A DNA stretch of 7,580 nt. Source: a virus (lineage: Duplodnaviria > Heunggongvirae > Uroviricota > Caudoviricetes). The stretch lies in the IMG/VR virus record IMGVR_UViG_2671180631_000001. The stretch is one strand, 5' to 3'. The notes under the pieces were generated by a model. The model searched no databases and was not told the origin of the DNA. It saw nothing but the letters and a program-made list of their open reading frames with translations. This document shows, one piece after another, positions 1 to 7,580 of the stretch. The position numbers were made by a program, and so were the translations under genes. The first letter of the stretch is position 1. Each line of letters opens with the position of its first letter.

Positions 1-34
1 CTCCAATGACTAGTCTAAAAACTAGTATTAAGAC

Positions 35-54
35 TATCACTTATTTAAGTGATA
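35..54. repeat. Perfect 9-bp inverted repeat TATCACTTA-tt-TAAGTGATA (operator-like 20-bp dyad) in AT-rich sequence upstream of the endolysin
   Basis: Read directly: 35-43 tatcactta, 44-45 tt, 46-54 taagtgata; the right arm is the exact reverse complement of the left arm. The existence of the repeat is certain, its function is unknown. Confidence 0.6.
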
Positions 55-108
55 CTGGTTGTCTGGAGATTCAGGGGGCCAGTCTAGTAAGGCTGCGAGA
101 GGTGAATA

Positions 109-500
109 ATGTCGCCATCATTACGCAAGGCTGTTGCAGTTGCTATTGGTGGCGGGGCTGTTGCTATAGCATCTGTGTTAATCACTGGCCCAGGTGGTAA
201 CGATGGTCTGGAAGGTGTCAGCTACATACTATACAAAGATATCATTGGTGTATGGACTGTATGTCACGGACACACCGGAAAAGACATCATGCCTGGTAAA
301 ACGTATACCGAAGCAGAATGCAAAGCTCTCCTGAATAAAGACCTTGCCACTGTCGCCAGACAAATTAACCCGTACATCAAAGTCGATATACCGGAAACAA
401 CGCGCGGCGCTCTTTACTCGTTCGTTTACAACGTGGGCGCTGGCAATTTCAGAACATCGACGCTTCTTCGCAAAATAAACCAGGGCTATATCAAAGGCGC
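109..500 (+). CDS. SAR endolysin (phage lysozyme, P21 R-like), 3' end lost in the N-gap
   Basis: ATG at 109 in a TAATG stop/start overlap. N-terminal Gly/Ala-rich weakly hydrophobic segment ([18 protein letters not shown]) typical of a signal-arrest-release domain, followed by a T4-lysozyme-like catalytic region (GLEGVSY...[16 protein letters not shown]). The frame runs straight into the N run at 501, so about 35 C-terminal codons are missing if the full length is ~165 aa as in P21 R. Confidence 0.9.
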
Positions 501-551
501 NNNNNNNNNNNNNNNNNNNNNNNNNNNNNNNNNNNNNNNNNNNNNNNNNNN
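501..551. other. Assembly gap or masked segment (51 N)
   Basis: Uninterrupted run of n at 501-551. Flanking gene content shows the true missing length is much larger than 51 bp (see findings). Confidence 0.95.
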
Positions 552-734
552 AAATGCCCTGTGCCATCCTCAGCCGAAACCTCCAGCGCCTCCGGCATGG
601 GCAATGATGCCACCGTCGAACTCTCTCCAGTTGCTGGACGAAACGTTCTCGGTATCCGGGACGGAATCATCAGCGACCAGACAGCATTGAGAATGCTTCA
701 GGAGTACATCAGGATCCAATGCCTTGGGGGGTAG
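552..734 (+). CDS. Rz-like i-spanin, C-terminal 60 codons only (5' part lies in the gap)
   Basis: The frame starting at 552 translates to KCPVPSSAETSSASGMGNDATVELSPVAGRNVLGIRDGIISDQTALRMLQEYIRIQCLGG, ending at TAG 732-734. This matches the pattern of the lambda Rz C-terminus as I recall it (…ASGVDNAASPRLADTAERDYFTLRERLITMQKQLEGTQKYINEQCR), including the penultimate conserved Cys. Confidence 0.8.
   Translation, partial: KCPVPSSAETSSASGMGNDATVELSPVAGRNVLGIRDGIISDQTALRMLQEYIRIQCLGG
553..690 (+). CDS. Rz1-like o-spanin (proline-rich lipoprotein), 3' part, embedded in the +1 frame of Rz
   Basis: The frame starting at 553 gives NALCHPQPKPPAPPAWAMMPPSNSLQLLDETFSVSGTESSATRQH, ending at TGA 688-690. 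CxxxPKPPAPPAW matches the lambda Rz1 core (QCVKPPPPPAW). It lies wholly inside the Rz frame, the classic embedded-spanin architecture. Start codon and lipobox are in the gap. Confidence 0.8.
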   Translation, partial: NALCHPQPKPPAPPAWAMMPPSNSLQLLDETFSVSGTESSATRQH

Positions 735-822: not shown

Positions 823-1335
823 TTAGCTAAAAAAAGGCAACACGAAGCTAAAACTACCAACATAAAGTGCTGACCAGCTAGCAGCTGAAATCAGACTCAC
901 TGTATACACTTTCACTGGATGAAGTTGCAACATTCCTGCCACCAAAGGAGCAATATAACGCAGCACGGCGATAAAGCGCGAAGTGAAAAGTATTGACACA
1001 GAGTTATTTTGCAACTGAAGGCGAACCCGTTCTATTGTATTGGAACGGCTTGATATTATACATGCAAGTTGAGGGATATGCCCAATTATTATACCAAGAT
1101 GGTAATTAACGATAGTACCGCACCATGCGCCACTCATGACCGTGATTCCAGCTTCCCATGGTGAAAGAGTCGTCTTGCTGACTGTAATTACAGTGGCCAT
1201 CATAATTGATGCTGGTGGCAATATCGCCGAAATGAGTAAAGTGGATTTTGTGAACGCTATTATAAAAAGAAGCCCCCATAGGCGATATGGATGAAGTACA
1301 AAATAGTTCATCAAAGCATTTATCCACTCCATCAA
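823..1335 (-). CDS. DedA/YqaA-like (COG1238-type) polytopic inner-membrane protein; AT-rich cargo (moron) gene
   Basis: 170-codon minus-strand ORF with stop TAA (reverse complement of 823-825). TTG at 1335 is immediately followed by ATG at 1332, with AAGGAAAG 7-10 nt upstream. The product is hydrophobic with a YqaA-like pattern (ILPPAS...SPWEAGI...GAWCGTIVNYHLGIIIG...). Sampled 60-nt blocks are about 35-45% GC against about 55% in the phage structural genes. Family assignment is from recalled similarity, not a search. Confidence 0.6.
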   Translation of the reverse strand: MMEWINALMNYFVLHPYRLWGLLFIIAFTKSTLLISAILPPASIMMATVITVSKTTLSPWEAGITVMSGAWCGTIVNYHLGIIIGHIPQLACIISSRSNTIERVRLQLQNNSVSILFTSRFIAVLRYIAPLVAGMLQLHPVKVYTVSLISAASWSALYVGSFSFVLPFFS

Positions 1336-1529: not shown

Positions 1530-2294
1530 ATGGCAAAACCGGACTGGGAGGCCATCGAATCGGCATACCGGGCCGGAGTCCTTAGCCTCCGTGATATAGG
1601 CGAGAAATACGGCGTTACAGAAGGGGCTATCAGGAAGAGGGCCAAAAAGCTTGGTTGGGCACGCAGTGGCGGTACGCAGGTTTGCAAAAATGGTACGCAA
1701 AAAAGGAAAGTGCGTACCAGCAGAAAGCCTGCCATTACTGGCCTTACACAAAAAAGTACGCAACTAAAAACAGAATCTACACCGGATACGAAACCGATAC
1801 GCGGAATGCGTACCGATCCCCCGACTAACCCATTCCAACCCGGTAACCAGCAGGCATTAAAACACGGTGGTTATGCCCGTCGCCTTCTGCTCAAAGATGA
1901 GGTGATAGAGGACGCTAAAGCGTTGACGCTCGAGGACGAATTATTTCGCCTTCGTGCTAACAACCTTGTCGCTGCAGAGAATATTGGTCGGTGGTTGGTG
2001 TCGCTGGAAGATGCTAATGGGGACCAGGAAAGGAAGATGCTGATTGAAAATATCAGCGCCGCCGAGAAAGCAATGATGCGCAATACAGTTCGTATTGAGT
2101 CCATCGTTGGCACGCTTGCGACGGTAGGAAAAATATTTGCTGATACAGCCTACCGCAAGGCCGCCACTGATAAGGTGTCTCTGGAGGCTGATCGTCTTCG
2201 CCGTGATGCAGGTATTGATGATGGCAATGGAGAGCGTGACCTCAATGACTTCTACTCTGACATCCAAACCGACGCTGAATCCGGCTTTACGTAG
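1530..2294 (+). CDS. Terminase small subunit (TerS) with N-terminal helix-turn-helix
   Basis: ATG at 1530 with AGGA 9 nt upstream; 254 codons; stop TAG 2292-2294. N-terminal HTH-like segment (SLRDIGEKYGVTEGAIRKRAKKLGW) followed by a basic/Thr-rich linker. Lies immediately upstream of the large terminase subunit. Confidence 0.8.
   Translation: MAKPDWEAIESAYRAGVLSLRDIGEKYGVTEGAIRKRAKKLGWARSGGTQVCKNGTQKRKVRTSRKPAITGLTQKSTQLKTESTPDTKPIRGMRTDPPTNPFQPGNQQALKHGGYARRLLLKDEVIEDAKALTLEDELFRLRANNLVAAENIGRWLVSLEDANGDQERKMLIENISAAEKAMMRNTVRIESIVGTLATVGKIFADTAYRKAATDKVSLEADRLRRDAGIDDGNGERDLNDFYSDIQTDAESGFT
1671..1814. repeat. Cluster of five GGTACGCA / TGCGTACC copies with flanking A-tracts inside terS (candidate pac or TerS recognition site)
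   Basis: GGTACGCA at 1671-1678 and 1692-1699; reverse complement TGCGTACC at 1711-1718 and 1807-1814; GTACGCA at 1756-1762. A5-6 tracts at 1686-1690, 1699-1704, 1750-1755 and 1766-1770. Copies in both orientations argue for a DNA-level rather than peptide-level constraint. Confidence 0.5.
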
Positions 2295-3648
2295 TTTCTG
2301 GACTATGCGGGCACGTAACAAAGTGCTTTATGGTGGTCGGTCATCGTCAAAATCATGGGATGCCGCTGGCATTGCCATATTTCTGTCGAATAAATACACC
2401 CTGCGTTTTTGTTGTGCCCGTCAGATCCAGAATAAAATCGAAGAGTCGGTGTATACCCTGCTCAAAATTCAGATAGACAGGTTTGGTCTGCGGCACCGTT
2501 TCCGTATTCTGAACAACAAAATCATTAACCGGGTTACTGGCTCGGAATTTGTTTTTTATGGATTATGGCGCAACATCGAAGAAATTAAGTCACTGGAGGG
2601 GATCGATGTGTTGTGGCTGGAAGAAGCCCACGCACTGACGGAATACCAGTGGAAAATTCTGGAGCCAACGATCCGTAAAGAGGGTTCGGAATGCTGGTTC
2701 ATATTCAACCCCGGACTTGTTACTGATTTCGTCTGGCGCAACTTCGTTGTTGATCCGCCCGAAGGCACTCTCATCCGCAAAATTAACTATGACGAAAATC
2801 CGTTTCTGTCTGACACCATGCTTAAGGTTATCGACGCGGCGCGACGCCGTGATCCGGATGGTTTTAAACATGTGTATGAGGGCGTTCCGGAGTCTGATGA
2901 TGATGCGGCAATCATCAAACTGTCTTGGATAGAAGCCGCAGTGGATGCGCACAAAACGTTAAATTTCGAACCCAGTGGAAGAAAGCGTATTGGCTTTGAC
3001 GTGGCTGACAGTGGTACAGATAAGTGCGCTAACGTTTACCGTCACGGATCCGTTGTTTTCTGGGCCGACGAATGGAAGGCCAAAGAAGATGAATTACTGA
3101 AGAGCTGCCAGCGTACTTATCAGGCGGCGCTGGAGCGTGAAGCAGATATTGTTTACGACTCTATCGGTGTTGGTGCGTCTGCCGGTGCTAAATTCTCTGA
3201 AATTAACGCTGACCGGAAGAGCGAGAACGCATACGCGCGACGTGTGAATTACCAGAGGTTTAACGCCGGTGCTGGTGTGCATGAGCCAGATGACGAGTAC
3301 AACGGCATCCCCAACAAAGACTTTTTCGCAAATCTTAAGGCTCAGGCATGGTGGCTGGTGGCTGACCGTTTCAGAAATACGTTTAACGCCATTAACAACG
3401 GAGAACAGTATCCTGTGGATGAGCTGATCAGCATAGATTCTCGTTGTCCGTTGCTTGAAAAGCTGAAACTGGAACTGACAACACCTCATCGTGATTTCGA
3501 CCGTAACGGACGTGTGATGGTCGAAAGTAAAAAAGACCTCGCAAAACGCGAGATACCGTCACCAAACGTTGCTGATGCATTCATTATGGCCTTCGCGCCA
3601 ATCGATACATCGCTGGATATCTGGGAACAGCTGGGGAGACAGGCCTGA
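2245..3648 (+). CDS. Terminase large subunit (TerL), PBSX-type ATPase plus nuclease
   Basis: Open frame from 2137 to TGA 3646-3648. Walker A-like YGGRSSSKS, Walker B-like IDVLWLEEAH, and C-terminal nuclease acidic motifs (FDVADSG, IVYDSIG, NVADAFIMA). The start is ambiguous: ATG 2245 (GGAGAG 10 nt upstream, overlaps the terS 3' end) is chosen here; alternatives are ATG 2218/2221/2227 or ATG 2305 (11 nt after the terS stop, no clear SD). Confidence 0.9.
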   Translation: MTSTLTSKPTLNPALRSFWTMRARNKVLYGGRSSSKSWDAAGIAIFLSNKYTLRFCCARQIQNKIEESVYTLLKIQIDRFGLRHRFRILNNKIINRVTGSEFVFYGLWRNIEEIKSLEGIDVLWLEEAHALTEYQWKILEPTIRKEGSECWFIFNPGLVTDFVWRNFVVDPPEGTLIRKINYDENPFLSDTMLKVIDAARRRDPDGFKHVYEGVPESDDDAAIIKLSWIEAAVDAHKTLNFEPSGRKRIGFDVADSGTDKCANVYRHGSVVFWADEWKAKEDELLKSCQRTYQAALEREADIVYDSIGVGASAGAKFSEINADRKSENAYARRVNYQRFNAGAGVHEPDDEYNGIPNKDFFANLKAQAWWLVADRFRNTFNAINNGEQYPVDELISIDSRCPLLEKLKLELTTPHRDFDRNGRVMVESKKDLAKREIPSPNVADAFIMAFAPIDTSLDIWEQLGRQA

Positions 3649-5114
3649 TGGCACGAAACAAACAAGCCCTGCGGCGAACTGTGCAGGCCACAGCTGATGG
3701 TTATGAGAATTTTATTGCCCGCGTAGGGATGCAGACACCTAACCAGCACTCAGCATCCACCTACCGGGCTAATTTCACCAGTCGTAACCGCATGCTGGTG
3801 GAATGGTCCTATCGTTCATCCTAGATCATCGGCGAAGCAGTCGATGCTATCCCGGATGATATGACCCGCAAAGGCATTCGCATCACTTCGGAAATTGATG
3901 CAAAAGATCGTGGCATTCTCGAATCACAACTGGATGAGTTGCAAATCTGGGATGCGCTGAATGACGTGCTGAAATGGTCGCGCCTCTACGGCGGCGCGGT
4001 GGGTTTCATCATGATTGAGGGGTAGGCACCAATGACCCCGCTGCGACCCGAAACCATCGGTAAGGGCAAGTTTAAGGGGATTCTCCCGCTCGACCGCTGG
4101 ATGGTCGACCCGGCACTGACCCGCCGCATTAAAGATATGGGGCCGGACCTGGGTAAACCTGAGTTTTACGATGTGGTGACCACAGCAACGGGAATTCCTG
4201 CCTGGCGCATTCATCACAGTCGCCTGATTCGCTTTGATGGCGTCACGTTGCCATTTCAGCAGAAGATGACCGAGAACGAATGGGGAATGTCGGTTGTAGA
4301 GCGTATCTGGGATCGTCTTACCGCGTTCGACAGCGCTACTGTCGGCGCGGCGCAGCTGGTCTACAAGGCGCATTTGCGTACCTACAGCGTGGAGAAGCTA
4401 CGCGAGCTTATCGCACTTGGTGGTCCTGCGTATGAAGCGTTGCTGAAGAATATCGACCTGATTCGACAGTTCCAGAGTAATGAAGGCATGACGCTCATGG
4501 ACTCGCGGGATAAGTTTGAAACCCATCAGTACAGCTTCAGTGGTCTGGATGACATCCTTTCGCAGTTTGTAGAACAGATTAGTGGCGCTGTTGGTATCCC
4601 ACTGGTGCGGTTGTTCGGACAGTCCCCGAAAGGATTTTCTACCGGTGATGCAGACCTTGCCAACTATTACGATCGCATCAGTTCGTTGCAGGAGAGGCGT
4701 TTACGTCTTCCGGTGCGGCGGATACTGGACATCATGCATCGTTCGGAACTTGGCAAGCCGCTGCCGGACGATTTCACGTTTGAGTTTAACCCGCTCTGGC
4801 AAATGTCTGATGTCGATCGCTCAACGGTGGCGTTAAACACCACCAACGCAATCAGTACGGCGCTGGGTGATGGTCTGATGACACTGAAAGCCGCTATGAC
4901 TGATTTGCGAGAAAATTCTGACGTAACCGGCATCGGGGCATCCATTACCGACGAGGACATCGAGAATGCCGAAGATGAAGCGCCGCCCGGCATCGGCGAA
5001 CCTGATGACGAACCGCAGGAGCCGTCAGGCGGAAATCCGGTATCGAACCAGCCTACGCAGGATAGCGAGGGCGGTCGGAGACATCGTAAATGGTCGCTAC
5101 GATGGTTCAAATGA
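3648..5114 (+). pseudogene. Portal protein gene interrupted by two in-frame TAG codons (3822-3824 and 4023-4025); longest intact segment is 4032-5114
   Basis: ATG 3648 overlaps the TerL stop (TGATG). One frame runs 489 codons to TGA 5112-5114 except for TAG at codons 59 and 126. The translation across both stops reads as one protein (…NRMLVEWSYRSS*IIGEAVDAIPDDMTRKGIRI…GGAVGFIMIEG*APMTPLRPETIGKGKFKGILPLDRWMVDP…), with an acidic C-terminal tail typical of portals. Confidence 0.8.
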
Positions 5115-5748
5115 CAGTATCACGGAAATTATTGCGGCGCTGGAGCGTTACAGTGAAATCATCACCCCCTGGGCGACAAAGGTCGCGGAAAACTTTACTG
5201 CGGACCTAACCCGGCAGAACGAGAAAGTTTGGCGGCAACACAGCAAGAACATCAGTCGCGAGCTCCGCAATCTTGTGGAAAGCGCTCCTGTGGGCCAGGT
5301 GATGCAATCCATCATCGCCGAACAGGTCAAGTACATCAAATCTCTGCCTCTCGAGGCCGCAGACAGGGTGTACGACATCCAGAACAAAGCGATAGAGGCT
5401 GTTGTCACCGGTGGTCGGGCGGAGCAGTTTGCTAAAGAGATTGCATCTACCGGCGATGTTGCTAAGTCTAGGGCCGATCTGATTGCCCGAACGGAACTGG
5501 GAAGAGCAACGGGCGCGCTGGATATGGCCCGAGCGATAGCTATTGGCTCGGATGGTTATATTTGGCGTACAGCCGATGATGGCGATGTCCGAGATTCCCA
5601 CGATCACATGAAAGGTAAATTCGTCCGCTGGGATTCACCTCCAACTTTGGACGGCATGACCGGCCACGCGGGCGAGCTGCCAAACTGCCGCTGCTATAAA
5701 GAGATCGTGTTTGTTCGCGTTCCATTCGCAATGAAAAGGGCAGCATAA
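4966..5748 (+). CDS. Head morphogenesis protein, Mu F / SPP1 gp7-like minor head protein
   Basis: ATG 4966 with GAGGA 8 nt upstream; 260 codons; stop TAA 5746-5748. Conserved Mu-F-type motif YIWRTADDGDVRDSHDHMKGKFVRWDSPP. The 5' end overlaps the portal 3' end by 149 nt in another frame. Confidence 0.85.
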   Translation: MPKMKRRPASANLMTNRRSRQAEIRYRTSLRRIARAVGDIVNGRYDGSNDSITEIIAALERYSEIITPWATKVAENFTADLTRQNEKVWRQHSKNISRELRNLVESAPVGQVMQSIIAEQVKYIKSLPLEAADRVYDIQNKAIEAVVTGGRAEQFAKEIASTGDVAKSRADLIARTELGRATGALDMARAIAIGSDGYIWRTADDGDVRDSHDHMKGKFVRWDSPPTLDGMTGHAGELPNCRCYKEIVFVRVPFAMKRAA

Positions 5749-5751
5749 CCC

Positions 5752-6972
5752 ATGAAATACTTTTTTGAGACCAGGCTCGGGGAAACCCGATACCGCCTGG
5801 CTGACGGCTCGTTGCTGTGCAAAGACGTGCCGATAGGACGAACAGGTAAGCAGCTCTATGGTGCTGATGACCTGCCAAAACTGAAACCCGATAAGTTCGG
5901 TGAAATAGTCGTCACGCGTTCTCCTGAGCAGGTATTCCATCCGGCCACGCTTGCCTCATTCGAAGGGATGAGCATCACGATCCTGCATCCTGAAGATGAA
6001 AACGGGAATGTGCGGCTGGTAAATCCCGAGAACTGGAAAGAGCTTGCTGTCGGGCACCTCCAGAATGTCCGGCGCGGGACGGGTGAGCAGTCTGATTTGA
6101 TGCTGGCTGACCTTATCGTCAAAGACGAAAGCGCCATTCAGCTTATCGAAGATGGCCTGCGCGAAGTGTCGTGCGGCTATGACGCGGAGTACGAGCAGAC
6201 CGAGCCAGGTAAAGCCGAGCAGGTCGATATTACCGGAAACCATGTGGCTCTTGTCCCTAAAGGCAGAGCCGGAAATCGTTGTGCAATTGGAGACAGAGAC
6301 ACAATGGCAAATCAAAAGAAAAACTGGTGGAACCGCATGCGTGCGGCCATCAAGACAGGAGATGCCGACACCATGAACGAACTGGTGGAGTCGGCTCCCG
6401 CATCGGTTACAGGAGATGAGGGGGATTTGCCGCAGGGCGTTAATCTCAACATCAACCTGTCCCCGCAGCAACCACTACCGGACAAAGCACCAGAGATGGG
6501 CGGAGATCCAACCGGCGACAGTGATGATGACCTCAAAACATTACTGAAAGCCCTGCTGGCTAAGCTGGAAAGAAATGCCACGGGCGATAACGATAATAAG
6601 CCTGACGATAATCCGACCGGTGACGGCGAGGACGATGAAGAGGAAACCACGATTACTGGTGACTCAGCCTGGCGTGCCGAAGTTATCGTTCCGGGTATCG
6701 ATCTGAGCCGTAAGATGAAACCGACCGCGTTCAAACGCGAGGTTCTGGCTTCTGCTGACAAAACGCTGGTTCGCCAGATAGTCGGTGATGCGGATATCCG
6801 CAAATTACCGAAACAATCGGTCGACATGGCGTTTAATGCCGTGTCTGAGGTTGCCAAAGGGCGAAACACCCGCGCCACCACCGGCGATGCACAGCGCCTA
6901 AACATGGGCATGACCAGTATCGCTTCCCTGAACAAACAAAACGCTGAATTCTGGGCAAACCGTAAAGGGTAA
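5752..6972 (+). CDS. Head scaffolding / prohead-maturation-like protein (conserved N-terminal domain, possibly DUF2213-type, plus acidic low-complexity C-terminal half)
   Basis: ATG 5752, 3 nt after the previous stop; 406 codons; stop TAA 6970-6972. N-terminal about 180 aa globular, with HP...GH...SCGYDAEYE...GNHVALVPKGRAGNRCAIGD. C-terminal half is D/E/G/T-rich with repeated TGD motifs, typical of scaffolding proteins. Position between the Mu-F-like gene and the downstream head genes fits. Family name is from memory. Confidence 0.65.
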   Translation: MKYFFETRLGETRYRLADGSLLCKDVPIGRTGKQLYGADDLPKLKPDKFGEIVVTRSPEQVFHPATLASFEGMSITILHPEDENGNVRLVNPENWKELAVGHLQNVRRGTGEQSDLMLADLIVKDESAIQLIEDGLREVSCGYDAEYEQTEPGKAEQVDITGNHVALVPKGRAGNRCAIGDRDTMANQKKNWWNRMRAAIKTGDADTMNELVESAPASVTGDEGDLPQGVNLNINLSPQQPLPDKAPEMGGDPTGDSDDDLKTLLKALLAKLERNATGDNDNKPDDNPTGDGEDDEEETTITGDSAWRAEVIVPGIDLSRKMKPTAFKREVLASADKTLVRQIVGDADIRKLPKQSVDMAFNAVSEVAKGRNTRATTGDAQRLNMGMTSIASLNKQNAEFWANRKG

Positions 6973-6975
6973 AAA

Positions 6976-7482
6976 ATGAATAATGTATTTCTGTACCGGA
7001 TGCCTGTTGGCATTGCCGGGGCTGTCTCTCGCCCGCAGGACTTAACCGTCGAACCGGTGGTCCTTAAATCCGATAACGCCTTCGCTGCCTATGGCCTGGC
7101 TGGTAAATACGATGATGACGGTTTTTTCGTGCCGCTGGCAGATGGTGATACCGCAGACAAGGTGAAGGGGATCTACGTGCGCCCTTATCCGACCACGTCG
7201 CAGCCGGACATGGTTCGCCAGGTGGGAACAGGCAAGAACTTCCCGGGCGACGCCATGAAGCGTGGCTACGTGACCGTTAATCTCGGTTCTGATTTTGATG
7301 CCAGCACTATCAAAAAAGGCGATCCGGTATACGTTGTCGTCTCCACTGATGAATCCATCAAAGTGCCGCTGGGTGGATTCATGTCCACGTCAGTCAGTGG
7401 CAAAAACGTGGTGCTGACCAACGCTGAATTCACAGGTGCCGGTGATGCTGACGGCAATGCAGAAATTTCCTGGAAGATTTAA
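6976..7482 (+). CDS. Head-module protein of unknown function (possible capsid accessory or decoration protein)
   Basis: ATG 6976 with AAGGG 7 nt upstream, 3 nt after the previous stop; 168 codons; stop TAA 7480-7482. Same strand and tight spacing as the morphogenesis operon. No motif recognised with confidence. Confidence 0.55.
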   Translation: MNNVFLYRMPVGIAGAVSRPQDLTVEPVVLKSDNAFAAYGLAGKYDDDGFFVPLADGDTADKVKGIYVRPYPTTSQPDMVRQVGTGKNFPGDAMKRGYVTVNLGSDFDASTIKKGDPVYVVVSTDESIKVPLGGFMSTSVSGKNVVLTNAEFTGAGDADGNAEISWKI

Positions 7483-7497
7483 GGAACAGACGAATGA

Positions 7498-7520
7498 GGT
7501 GATGCTGCCAACTTACTGAT
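7498..7520 (+). repeat. IS1 left terminal inverted repeat (IRL)
   Basis: GGTGATGCTGCCAACTTACTGAT read at 7498-7520, matching the IS1 terminus as I recall it. Confidence 0.85.
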
Positions 7521-7552
7521 TTAGTGTATGATGGTGTTTTTGAGGTGCTCCA

Positions 7553-7580
7553 GTGGCTTCTGTTTCTATCAGCTGTCCCT
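7553..7580 (+). CDS. insA: IS1 InsA (transposition regulator), 5' partial, truncated by the window end
   Basis: GTG 7553 followed by GCT TCT GTT TCT ATC AGC TGT CCC, giving (M)ASVSISCP, the known InsA N-terminus. Confidence 0.85.

Follow-up and report, generated by a model that had tools for sequence, protein, structure and literature searches.

The window, by which we mean the whole 7,580-nucleotide stretch of DNA analysed here, holds the remnant of a prophage, and both of its ends are formed by insertion sequences (Table 1). On the left, an IS2 copy, whose counterpart in locus L002 is annotated as "IS3-like element IS2 family transposase", forms the left boundary of the contig and meets the holin gene at window positions 86/87, and in complete Shigella sonnei genomes IS2 orfA/orfB lie directly to the left of the window start. 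Homology to the relative L001 restarts at L001 position 1101, inside its holin CDS (908-1123). The endolysin gene that follows, whose product matches PF00959 in S. sonnei loci, carries two lineage-specific missense changes, P41L and D127Y (substitutions at 230 and 487). It runs into a scaffold gap covering the end of the lysozyme gene and the start of Rz, with window positions 500 and 552 mapping to 4130 and 4521 in locus L005 and to 1514 and 1905 in L001. Beyond the lysis genes and a cargo gene lies a 254-aa ORF, upstream of the large terminase gene (terL) and overlapping it; a Pfam search with this ORF gave no hit, and it is presumed to be the small terminase gene (terS).

The head genes occupy the rest of the window in the order terL, portal, Mu F-like gene, as in intact relatives, where the 110-nt overlap of the Mu F-like gene with the 3' end of the portal gene is likewise annotated. 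The cement gene is the last prophage gene kept. It is followed by the end of an IS1 copy, which forms the right boundary of the contig, and beyond the window S. sonnei genomes continue with IS1 insA/insB and then with the chromosomal genes pgl and ybhD. This IS1 replaces about 19 kb with the major capsid, tail, tail-fibre and ipaHb genes (19,075 bp are absent in comparison with FDAARGOS_944).

Table 1. Features of the prophage remnant (window coordinates; handles beginning with L denote loci used for comparison).
Feature	Position	Strand	Remarks
IS2 end, 86 bp, in prophage holin gene	1..86	-	100% match to annotated IS2 in L002
Class II (S21-like) holin, 3' stump	87..109	+	Cut by IS2 near codon 65 (71 in all)
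Endolysin gene (RrrD-type lysozyme), 5' part	109..500	+	rrrD annotated in L001 and L003
Scaffold gap, 51 N	501..551		Represents 390 bp in finished genomes
Rz-type lysis (spanin) gene, 3' part	552..734	+	"Lysis protein" CDS 1617-2087 in L001; PF03245
DedA/VTT-domain membrane protein gene (cargo)	823..1335	-	Pfam VTT_dom E=9e-14; WP_011069285.1 DedA family protein
Presumed small terminase subunit gene, intact	1530..2294	+	Assigned by position
Large terminase subunit gene	2245..3648	+	Pfam Terminase_3 E=4e-38; annotated PBSX family; intact in this lineage
Portal pseudogene	3648..5114	+	Single frame with two amber codons; ORF calls split it into pieces of 58, 54 and 360 aa
Amber 1, W59*	3822..3824	+	TGG>TAG (G3823A), codon 59, context TCC TAG ATC
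Amber 2, Q126*	4023..4025	+	CAG>TAG (C4023T), codon 126, context GGG TAG GCA
Missense A308V in portal pseudogene	4570..4570	+	C>T, GCA>GTA; specific to S. sonnei lineage
Mu F-like head morphogenesis gene	5005..5748	+	Pfam Phage_Mu_F E=2e-18
DUF2213 (Pa193 gp24-like) head protein gene, intact	5752..6972	+	Pfam DUF2213 E=3e-42
Capsid cement/minor capsid gene	6976..7482	+	XM1_gp53_minor_capsid E=4e-30; Phage_cement E=3e-21
End of IS1 copy	7498..7580	+	Prophage homology stops at 7497

The portal region translates as one frame of 489 codons, starting at an ATG (3648-3650) that overlaps the terL stop (TGA, 3646-3648) and ending with TGA at 5112-5114. An uninterrupted full-length frame is absent, since codons 59 and 126 are both TAG. 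A preliminary description of this DNA had reported a continuous frame with two TAG codons and no frameshift, and had taken the flanking translation to be a single protein; both statements hold, as comparison with intact homologues shows no indels and the conceptual translation aligns end to end with the 488-aa protein WP_000113499.1, from which it differs only by W59*, Q126* and A308V. The contrary option that it had named, with the three segments as separate genes in relatives, is ruled out because the homologues have one ORF. The original codons could be read from the homologue alignment that it had proposed, which gives TGG at position 59 and CAG at position 126: each of the seven relatives compared (L001-L004, L025, L027 and L029) has G at the first amber site and C at the second, and among 50 diverse homologues codon 59 encodes Trp in 43 and codon 126 encodes Gln in all 50. 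Polarised against the seven relatives, the three portal changes, each a single transition with respect to intact copies, are unique to the S. sonnei lineage, and A308V accompanies both ambers in every copy seen.

A first indication that this gene originally encoded a portal protein comes from the intact orthologue, which matches Pfam PF06381 (Phage_portal_3/DUF1073) over residues 55-402 with E=3e-106 and 355 bits, the score cut-off of the family being 33.8 bits; the 54- and 360-aa fragments carry PF06381 matches as well. The intact orthologue also matches solved portals, namely those of Pam3 (8hds, E=2e-37) and E217 (gp19, 8fvh/9b41, E=1e-14), with homology extending over some 300-400 residues, and three further matched chains were deposited as portal or putative portal proteins. 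These two phages, after which the families matched by the cement and DUF2213 genes of the window are also named, are distant relatives and serve only to confirm the identity of the ancestral gene. Some DUF1073 fragments bear the label "anti-CBASS Acb1 family"; the portal assignment was preferred on account of the Pfam match, the solved portal structures and the gene order. Much closer are the Escherichia coli prophages of FDAARGOS_944, FDAARGOS_943 and VL40, which encode WP_000113499.1 with 99.8% nucleotide identity across the gene and to which phage vB_EcoM-606R2 and Salmonella phage SEN34 are related. These intact copies share with the window the terS-like gene, terL, portal, Mu F-like, DUF2213 and cement protein genes, but they possess an unbroken 488-aa portal together with major capsid, tail and tail-fibre genes, whereas the window keeps nothing past the cement gene. 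The portal gene of the window is thus a pseudogene of the Phage_portal_3 family and not a functional member of it.

The stops are not peculiar to this contig. Several complete S. sonnei chromosomes match the window with 100% identity, among them HE616528.1, an entry that serves as S. sonnei reference in published papers, and both TAG codons are found in nine of ten chromosome-scale S. sonnei loci; the tenth (L014) has indels that displace site 1 from its fixed offset. The copies compared differ by 0-1 substitutions over about 7.5 kb. In public assemblies, the 360-, 54- and 58-aa ORF fragments occur in 2,576, 2,758 and 2,737 blocks, respectively, with S. sonnei records among those named, and the haplotype consisting of the two TAG codons and T4570 is also present in four IMG/VR isolate proviruses. 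A base-calling or assembly error masking sense codons at both sites, which the preliminary description had considered, might be suspected because the window is a draft scaffold in which positions 501-551 are a run of 51 N; given that many independent projects have arrived at the identical haplotype in finished and chromosome-scale assemblies, that isolate proviruses repeat it and that the fragment ORFs recur in more than 2,500 blocks across thousands of assemblies, the probability of such an error is negligible.

Outside the S. sonnei haplotype, no stop at codon 59 or 126 was seen in seven relatives, 50 homologues and 79 proviruses: 76 of the 79 informative close proviruses carry sense codons, and the other three have the haplotype of the window. 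An exact-pattern scan for the first amber in species-representative genomes found nothing. Copies with a single amber were absent among the best 80 IMG/VR loci, and exact look-ups retrieved a 125-aa product that keeps W59 and terminates at G125 on three Logan contigs, a 417-aa product on one Logan contig and a full-length V308 allele on one contig.

The preliminary description was right that both stops are TAG, yet the coincidence it found worth a second look is predicted by the codon content of the gene. In the intact portal gene, TAG accounts for 50% of all nonsense-creating substitutions and for 57% of nonsense-creating transitions, so that two stops would both be TAG with P=0.25-0.33; the pair was accordingly dismissed as a special signal. 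Another of its proposals was that the portal depends on a host or phage amber-suppressor tRNA by which the full-length protein is still made. In favour of this are the shared stop type, the intactness of the remaining frame and, in intact relatives, tRNA genes that directly precede the lysis cassette. However, ARAGORN detected no tRNA in the window, and neither the intact relatives nor the S. sonnei loci, covered in stretches up to 17 kb long, contain a tRNA-CUA; at most one tRNA, with anticodon CAT, occurs in the S. sonnei loci, and the only anticodons in these loci and the intact relatives are TGT, TCC, TCT, CAT and TAC. Moreover, the ambers are not conserved, being absent from the 50 diverse homologues and from the 76 proviruses with sense codons, and a TAG/TAG pair is expected by chance. 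Lastly, the element is devoid of capsid and tail genes, which would leave a restored portal without assembly partners, and suppressor read-through could not restore the element because no capsid gene remains. The resemblance to laboratory amber (sus/am) mutants grown on supE/supF hosts, which likewise carry in-frame TAG codons in an essential morphogenesis gene, ends here: the search in and around the element of the window turned up no suppressor tRNA, the element is non-viable for other reasons and its stops are limited to one clonal bacterial lineage. We consider suppressor dependence extremely improbable.

Copies of the same prophage in other Shigella are broken by different, independent lesions. 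In the S. flexneri-type copy, a protein-based scan revealed that TGG and CAG are kept and that the portal ORF is intact, the lesions being IS2 together with a deletion of 7 bp in terL and the loss of 17 bp from the cement gene. In S. dysenteriae strains Sd197 and 1617, a 360-aa product starts from the same Met as that of the window, suggesting that the Q126 amber might be common to both species; this was ruled out by the S. dysenteriae copy in IMG/VR (L171), whose portal gene is joined to IS1 at nucleotide ~308 and reads CAG at codon 126.

Whether the portal gene was inactivated under selection can be weighed against the substitutions that distinguish the S. sonnei lineage. There are only six, one synonymous, three missense and two nonsense, and five of the six are G:C>A:T. 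The proportion altering the protein (5/6) fits relaxed constraint or neutrality, bearing in mind that n=6 is too few for a test and that nonsense changes are nominally over-represented: two in six is nominally above expectation with P of about 0.02-0.05, a post hoc figure for a gene picked for its stops. Similarly, the portal gene, at 20% of the sequence, contains three of the six (P about 0.10, also post hoc). These nominal excesses leave a little room for selection, in which case residual portal protein would be harmful, either toxic in itself or the trigger of a portal-sensing defence, and knock-outs would be favoured; the separate disruption of the S. dysenteriae portal by IS1 could be read in the same way. 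Against this, the figures were computed after the fact on tiny counts, a second stop gains nothing after the first, the S. flexneri-type copy lost terL and kept an intact portal ORF, and the IS elements lying between the Q-like late-regulator gene and the portal region probably silence the operon. Selected inactivation is therefore regarded as improbable.

As the preliminary description had pointed out, an internal ATG at 4032 opens a 360-aa ORF, which might constitute an N-terminally truncated, domesticated portal fragment with a function of its own. Its 360 codons are open in thousands of genomes, and the ATG is preceded, at a distance of ~10 nt, by a Shine-Dalgarno-like motif, GAGGGG. Nevertheless, in copies as close to identity as those compared here an open frame tells little about constraint, and the product would be missing residues 1-128 and with them the first part of the Pfam portal domain, would carry the lineage-specific A308V and would belong to an element in which no partners of a portal remain. 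A functional fragment is thus very unlikely.

The reading that we hold with high confidence is that the portal gene is a neutral, clonally inherited pseudogene in an IS-bounded, defective prophage fixed in S. sonnei. The preliminary description had listed early pseudogenisation of a cryptic prophage among its options; the pseudogenisation is borne out, but "early" is not, in view of the IS2 and IS1 bounds and the loss of about 19 kb of capsid and tail genes. The element can neither lyse the cell nor build a particle, because IS2 disrupts the holin and the IS1-associated deletion took the major capsid, tail and tail-fibre genes, and for this reason changes in the portal gene would not have been selected against. 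The mutations, their ancestral states, their recurrence in different assemblies and the other lesions are observed, whereas we infer that the changes were neutral, that the prophage ceased to be a working phage first and that the portal mutations came later. Two independent, spontaneous G:C>A:T transitions would then have turned Trp59 (TGG) and Gln126 (CAG) into amber codons and a third would have given A308V, after which the mutations would have passed clonally through the S. sonnei lineage.

In practical terms, the 58-, 54- and 360-aa calls, already deposited separately as "putative bacteriophage protein" in public S. sonnei genomes, should be merged into a single pseudogene annotation, and a pair of stops of the same type does not on its own signal recoding or suppression where CAG and TGG are the main mutational routes to a stop. 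According to PMC8072062, Shigella genomes are known for IS-driven pseudogenisation. The window resembles that pattern in combining IS1 and IS2 insertions, an IS-associated deletion and nonsense mutations within one element, and differs from it in nothing of substance. It is a routine, lineage-fixed pseudogenisation of a cryptic prophage gene, and adds one more case of Shigella prophage decay that in itself matters little.

The portal frame, whose ATG (3648-3650) overlaps the terL stop codon (TGA, 3646-3648), is continuous over its whole length and carries two in-frame amber codons, as the preliminary description had stated and translation of 3648-5114 confirms. The closest intact copies, with 99.8% identity over the gene, are found in three E. 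coli chromosomes (FDAARGOS_944, FDAARGOS_943 and VL40), where they are annotated as a single 488-aa protein, WP_000113499.1. This protein matches Pfam Phage_portal_3 (PF06381, formerly DUF1073; E=3e-106) as well as the solved portal proteins of Pam3 (8hds, E=2e-37) and E217 (gp19, E=1e-14), and the gene order is the usual one of a head module: presumed terS, terL, portal, Mu F-like gene, DUF2213 and cement protein. Related free phages include vB_EcoM-606R2 and its relatives (98% identity) and Salmonella phage SEN34 (85%). The identification of the broken gene as a portal gene is sound. Fragments of this family go under conflicting names in public records ('DUF1073', 'phage portal protein', 'anti-CBASS protein Acb1 family protein'), the 54-aa piece even being named 'Alpha/beta hydrolase'; the solved-structure matches and the gene order support portal over the other names. 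Some S. sonnei gene calls start the Mu F-like gene at window position 5290 (152 aa).

Features of the window and of related loci (window positions unless a locus is named; L171, S. dysenteriae copy)
Feature	Position	Strand	Remark
End of IS2 copy	1-86		inserted at ~codon 65 of 71-codon holin gene
51-N scaffold gap	501-551		not true to size; stands for 390 bp
DedA/VTT-domain membrane protein gene	823-1335	-	between lysis cassette and terminase genes
Portal frame	3648-5114	+	489 codons
First amber TAG	3822-3824	+	codon 59
G3823A	3823		TGG>TAG, W59*
Second amber TAG	4023-4025	+	codon 126
C4023T	4023		CAG>TAG, Q126*
C4570T	4570		GCA>GTA, A308V
Mu F-like head morphogenesis gene, overlap with portal 3' end	5005-5114		110 nt, another frame; annotation in intact relatives
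Terminal TGA of portal frame	5112-5114	+	translation
End of IS1 copy	7498-7580		prophage homology ends at 7497
IS2 insertion in terL, L025/L026	2908-2912 (equivalent)		
7-bp deletion in terL, L025/L026	3349-3355 (equivalent)		
17-bp deletion in cement gene, L025/L026	7323-7339 (equivalent)		
Junction of IS1 (last 29 nt) with portal at nucleotide ~308	L171 1-110		at start of L171
tRNA cluster upstream of holin gene, intact relatives	L001 75-228; L003 309-616; L008 320-393		ARAGORN

Compared base by base, window and intact gene differ only by G3823A, C4023T and C4570T; polarised against seven relatives, all three changes are derived and found in this lineage alone. All 50 homologues compared, ranging from Enterobacterales to Burkholderia, have Q at residue 126, and 43 of them have W at residue 59. 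Since all but one of them (locus L063, 257 aa) encode a single ORF of ~460-560 aa, the three portal pieces represent one broken gene, and the alternative envisaged earlier, that they are separate genes in relatives, falls away.

Base-calling error, also proposed as the origin of the stops, has a practically negligible probability and is excluded by their recurrence across independent assemblies. Several S. sonnei chromosomes are 100% identical to the window, one matching chromosome, HE616528.1, serves as S. sonnei reference in published papers, and TAG/TAG/T4570 is present in nine of ten S. sonnei loci checked (in the tenth, L014, indels displace the first amber site from its fixed offset). 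The 58-aa and 54-aa fragments and the exact 360-aa product are indexed in 2,737, 2,758 and 2,576 blocks of a public assembly collection, respectively, and source names such as Q3Z426_SHISS place the portal fragments in Shigella sonnei. Of 5,426 complete E. coli genomes searched, none exceeds 99.8% identity to the gene, and the top three have sense codons at both amber sites. In IMG/VR, both amber-specific sequences match the same four contigs; the best 80 portal loci there comprise 76 with TGG/CAG, three with the TAG/TAG/GTA haplotype and one too short to include site 1; no locus has a single amber. Rare products on Logan contigs (P0061, P0076 and P0077) include a 125-aa one with W59 that ends at G125 (three contigs), a 417-aa one from Met72 (one contig) and a full-length V308 allele (one contig); they may fit single-lesion intermediates, or equally contig-end truncations or unrelated lineages.

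The element is a dead prophage remnant. In finished S. sonnei genomes its right end is followed by IS1 insA and insB and then by chromosomal pgl and ybhD. FDAARGOS_944 has this pgl/ybhD pair 19,075 bp past its cement gene, and the whole stretch between them, with genes for the major capsid protein (DUF2184), the neck, the tail tube and sheath region, the baseplate and the tail fibres, together with that for the ipaHb effector, is missing from the window element. Upstream, S. sonnei has an IS3-family copy between the DUF1133/Q-like late-regulator gene and the late genes, joined in some strains by an IS110-family copy. The window resembles a scaffold of short reads broken off at IS repeats on both ends, which fits the size of most public contigs with portal fragments (5-10 kb); finished S. 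sonnei genomes contain the sequence behind its gap, namely the end of the lysozyme gene and the start of Rz. The T3SS effector gene ipaHb, at the right end of the intact relative (L176 16861-18687, FDAARGOS_944 record 4326760-4328586), lies beside pgl and a truncated gene for a DNA invertase, and the 19-kb arm including it is absent at the S. sonnei locus. The DedA/VTT-domain gene is conserved in the closest relatives and is probably a cargo gene.

With the sense codons ancestral, IS2 in the holin gene and the capsid and tail genes lost, the stops reflect, with high confidence, ordinary pseudogenisation, fixed in the lineage, of a gene in a cryptic S. sonnei prophage remnant, one of the options first considered. 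An element no longer capable of lysing its host or forming a capsid would leave its portal gene without purifying selection, so that TGG->TAG and CAG->TAG transitions would accumulate without counterselection and then be fixed in the lineage; that the changes were neutral, and how they are timed against the IS events, is what we infer. Six substitutions within the 7,360 comparable bases are specific to the lineage; two are nonsense, three missense and one synonymous, and five of the six are G:C>A:T transitions. Two of the missense changes, P41L and D127Y (window 230 and 487), lie in the endolysin gene, which suggests that the lysis gene is drifting too. That both stops are TAG, the original reason for interest, is expected, given a probability of 0.25-0.33: it is mainly TGG and CAG that a single transition turns into a stop, TAG in both cases, and in the intact gene TAG is the outcome of 50% of the possible nonsense substitutions and of 57% of those that are transitions. 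Selected inactivation of the portal gene is improbable; what speaks for it are small-number statistics, namely the nominally high nonsense share (2/6, P about 0.02-0.05) and the three of six substitutions within the gene (P about 0.10), given little weight because the window was chosen, post hoc, for these stops.

Dependence on an amber suppressor, whereby read-through would yield full-length portal protein, is extremely unlikely: the stops are not conserved among relatives, no capsid is left for a restored portal to work with, and neither the window nor the S. sonnei loci nor the intact relatives contain a tRNA-CUA. In the tRNA cluster of the latter, ARAGORN calls Thr-TGT, Gly-TCC, Arg-TCT, Met-CAT (labelled Ile in the record annotation) and Val-TAC; in some S. 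sonnei strains the CAT tRNA alone survives. The 360-aa ORF opened by the ATG at 4032 has an SD-like motif ahead of it, and a functional fragment is nevertheless very improbable. The portal fragments already stand as separate ORF entries in public annotations, and as ordinary pseudogenisation the case is of low interest.

Other Shigella carry the same prophage. The S. flexneri-type copy L025, identical in sequence to L026 (species-representative loci, S. flexneri SFBU1023 and 'E. coli' ECMA0423), keeps TGG, CAG and an intact portal ORF; its decay was independent, with lesions in terL and the cement gene. The S. dysenteriae copy L171 (IMGVR_UViG_2609459817_000001) has peptides specific to the Sd197 protein P0003; a shared Q126 amber was rejected there, codon 126 being CAG, and with the IS1 fusion its 360-aa gene call has a different cause. 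The remaining 360-aa part has four missense changes of its own versus the intact orthologue. Counting S. sonnei, three Shigella lineages show this prophage broken, each in its own way, which fits the IS-driven pseudogenisation known from Shigella genomes (PMC8072062).
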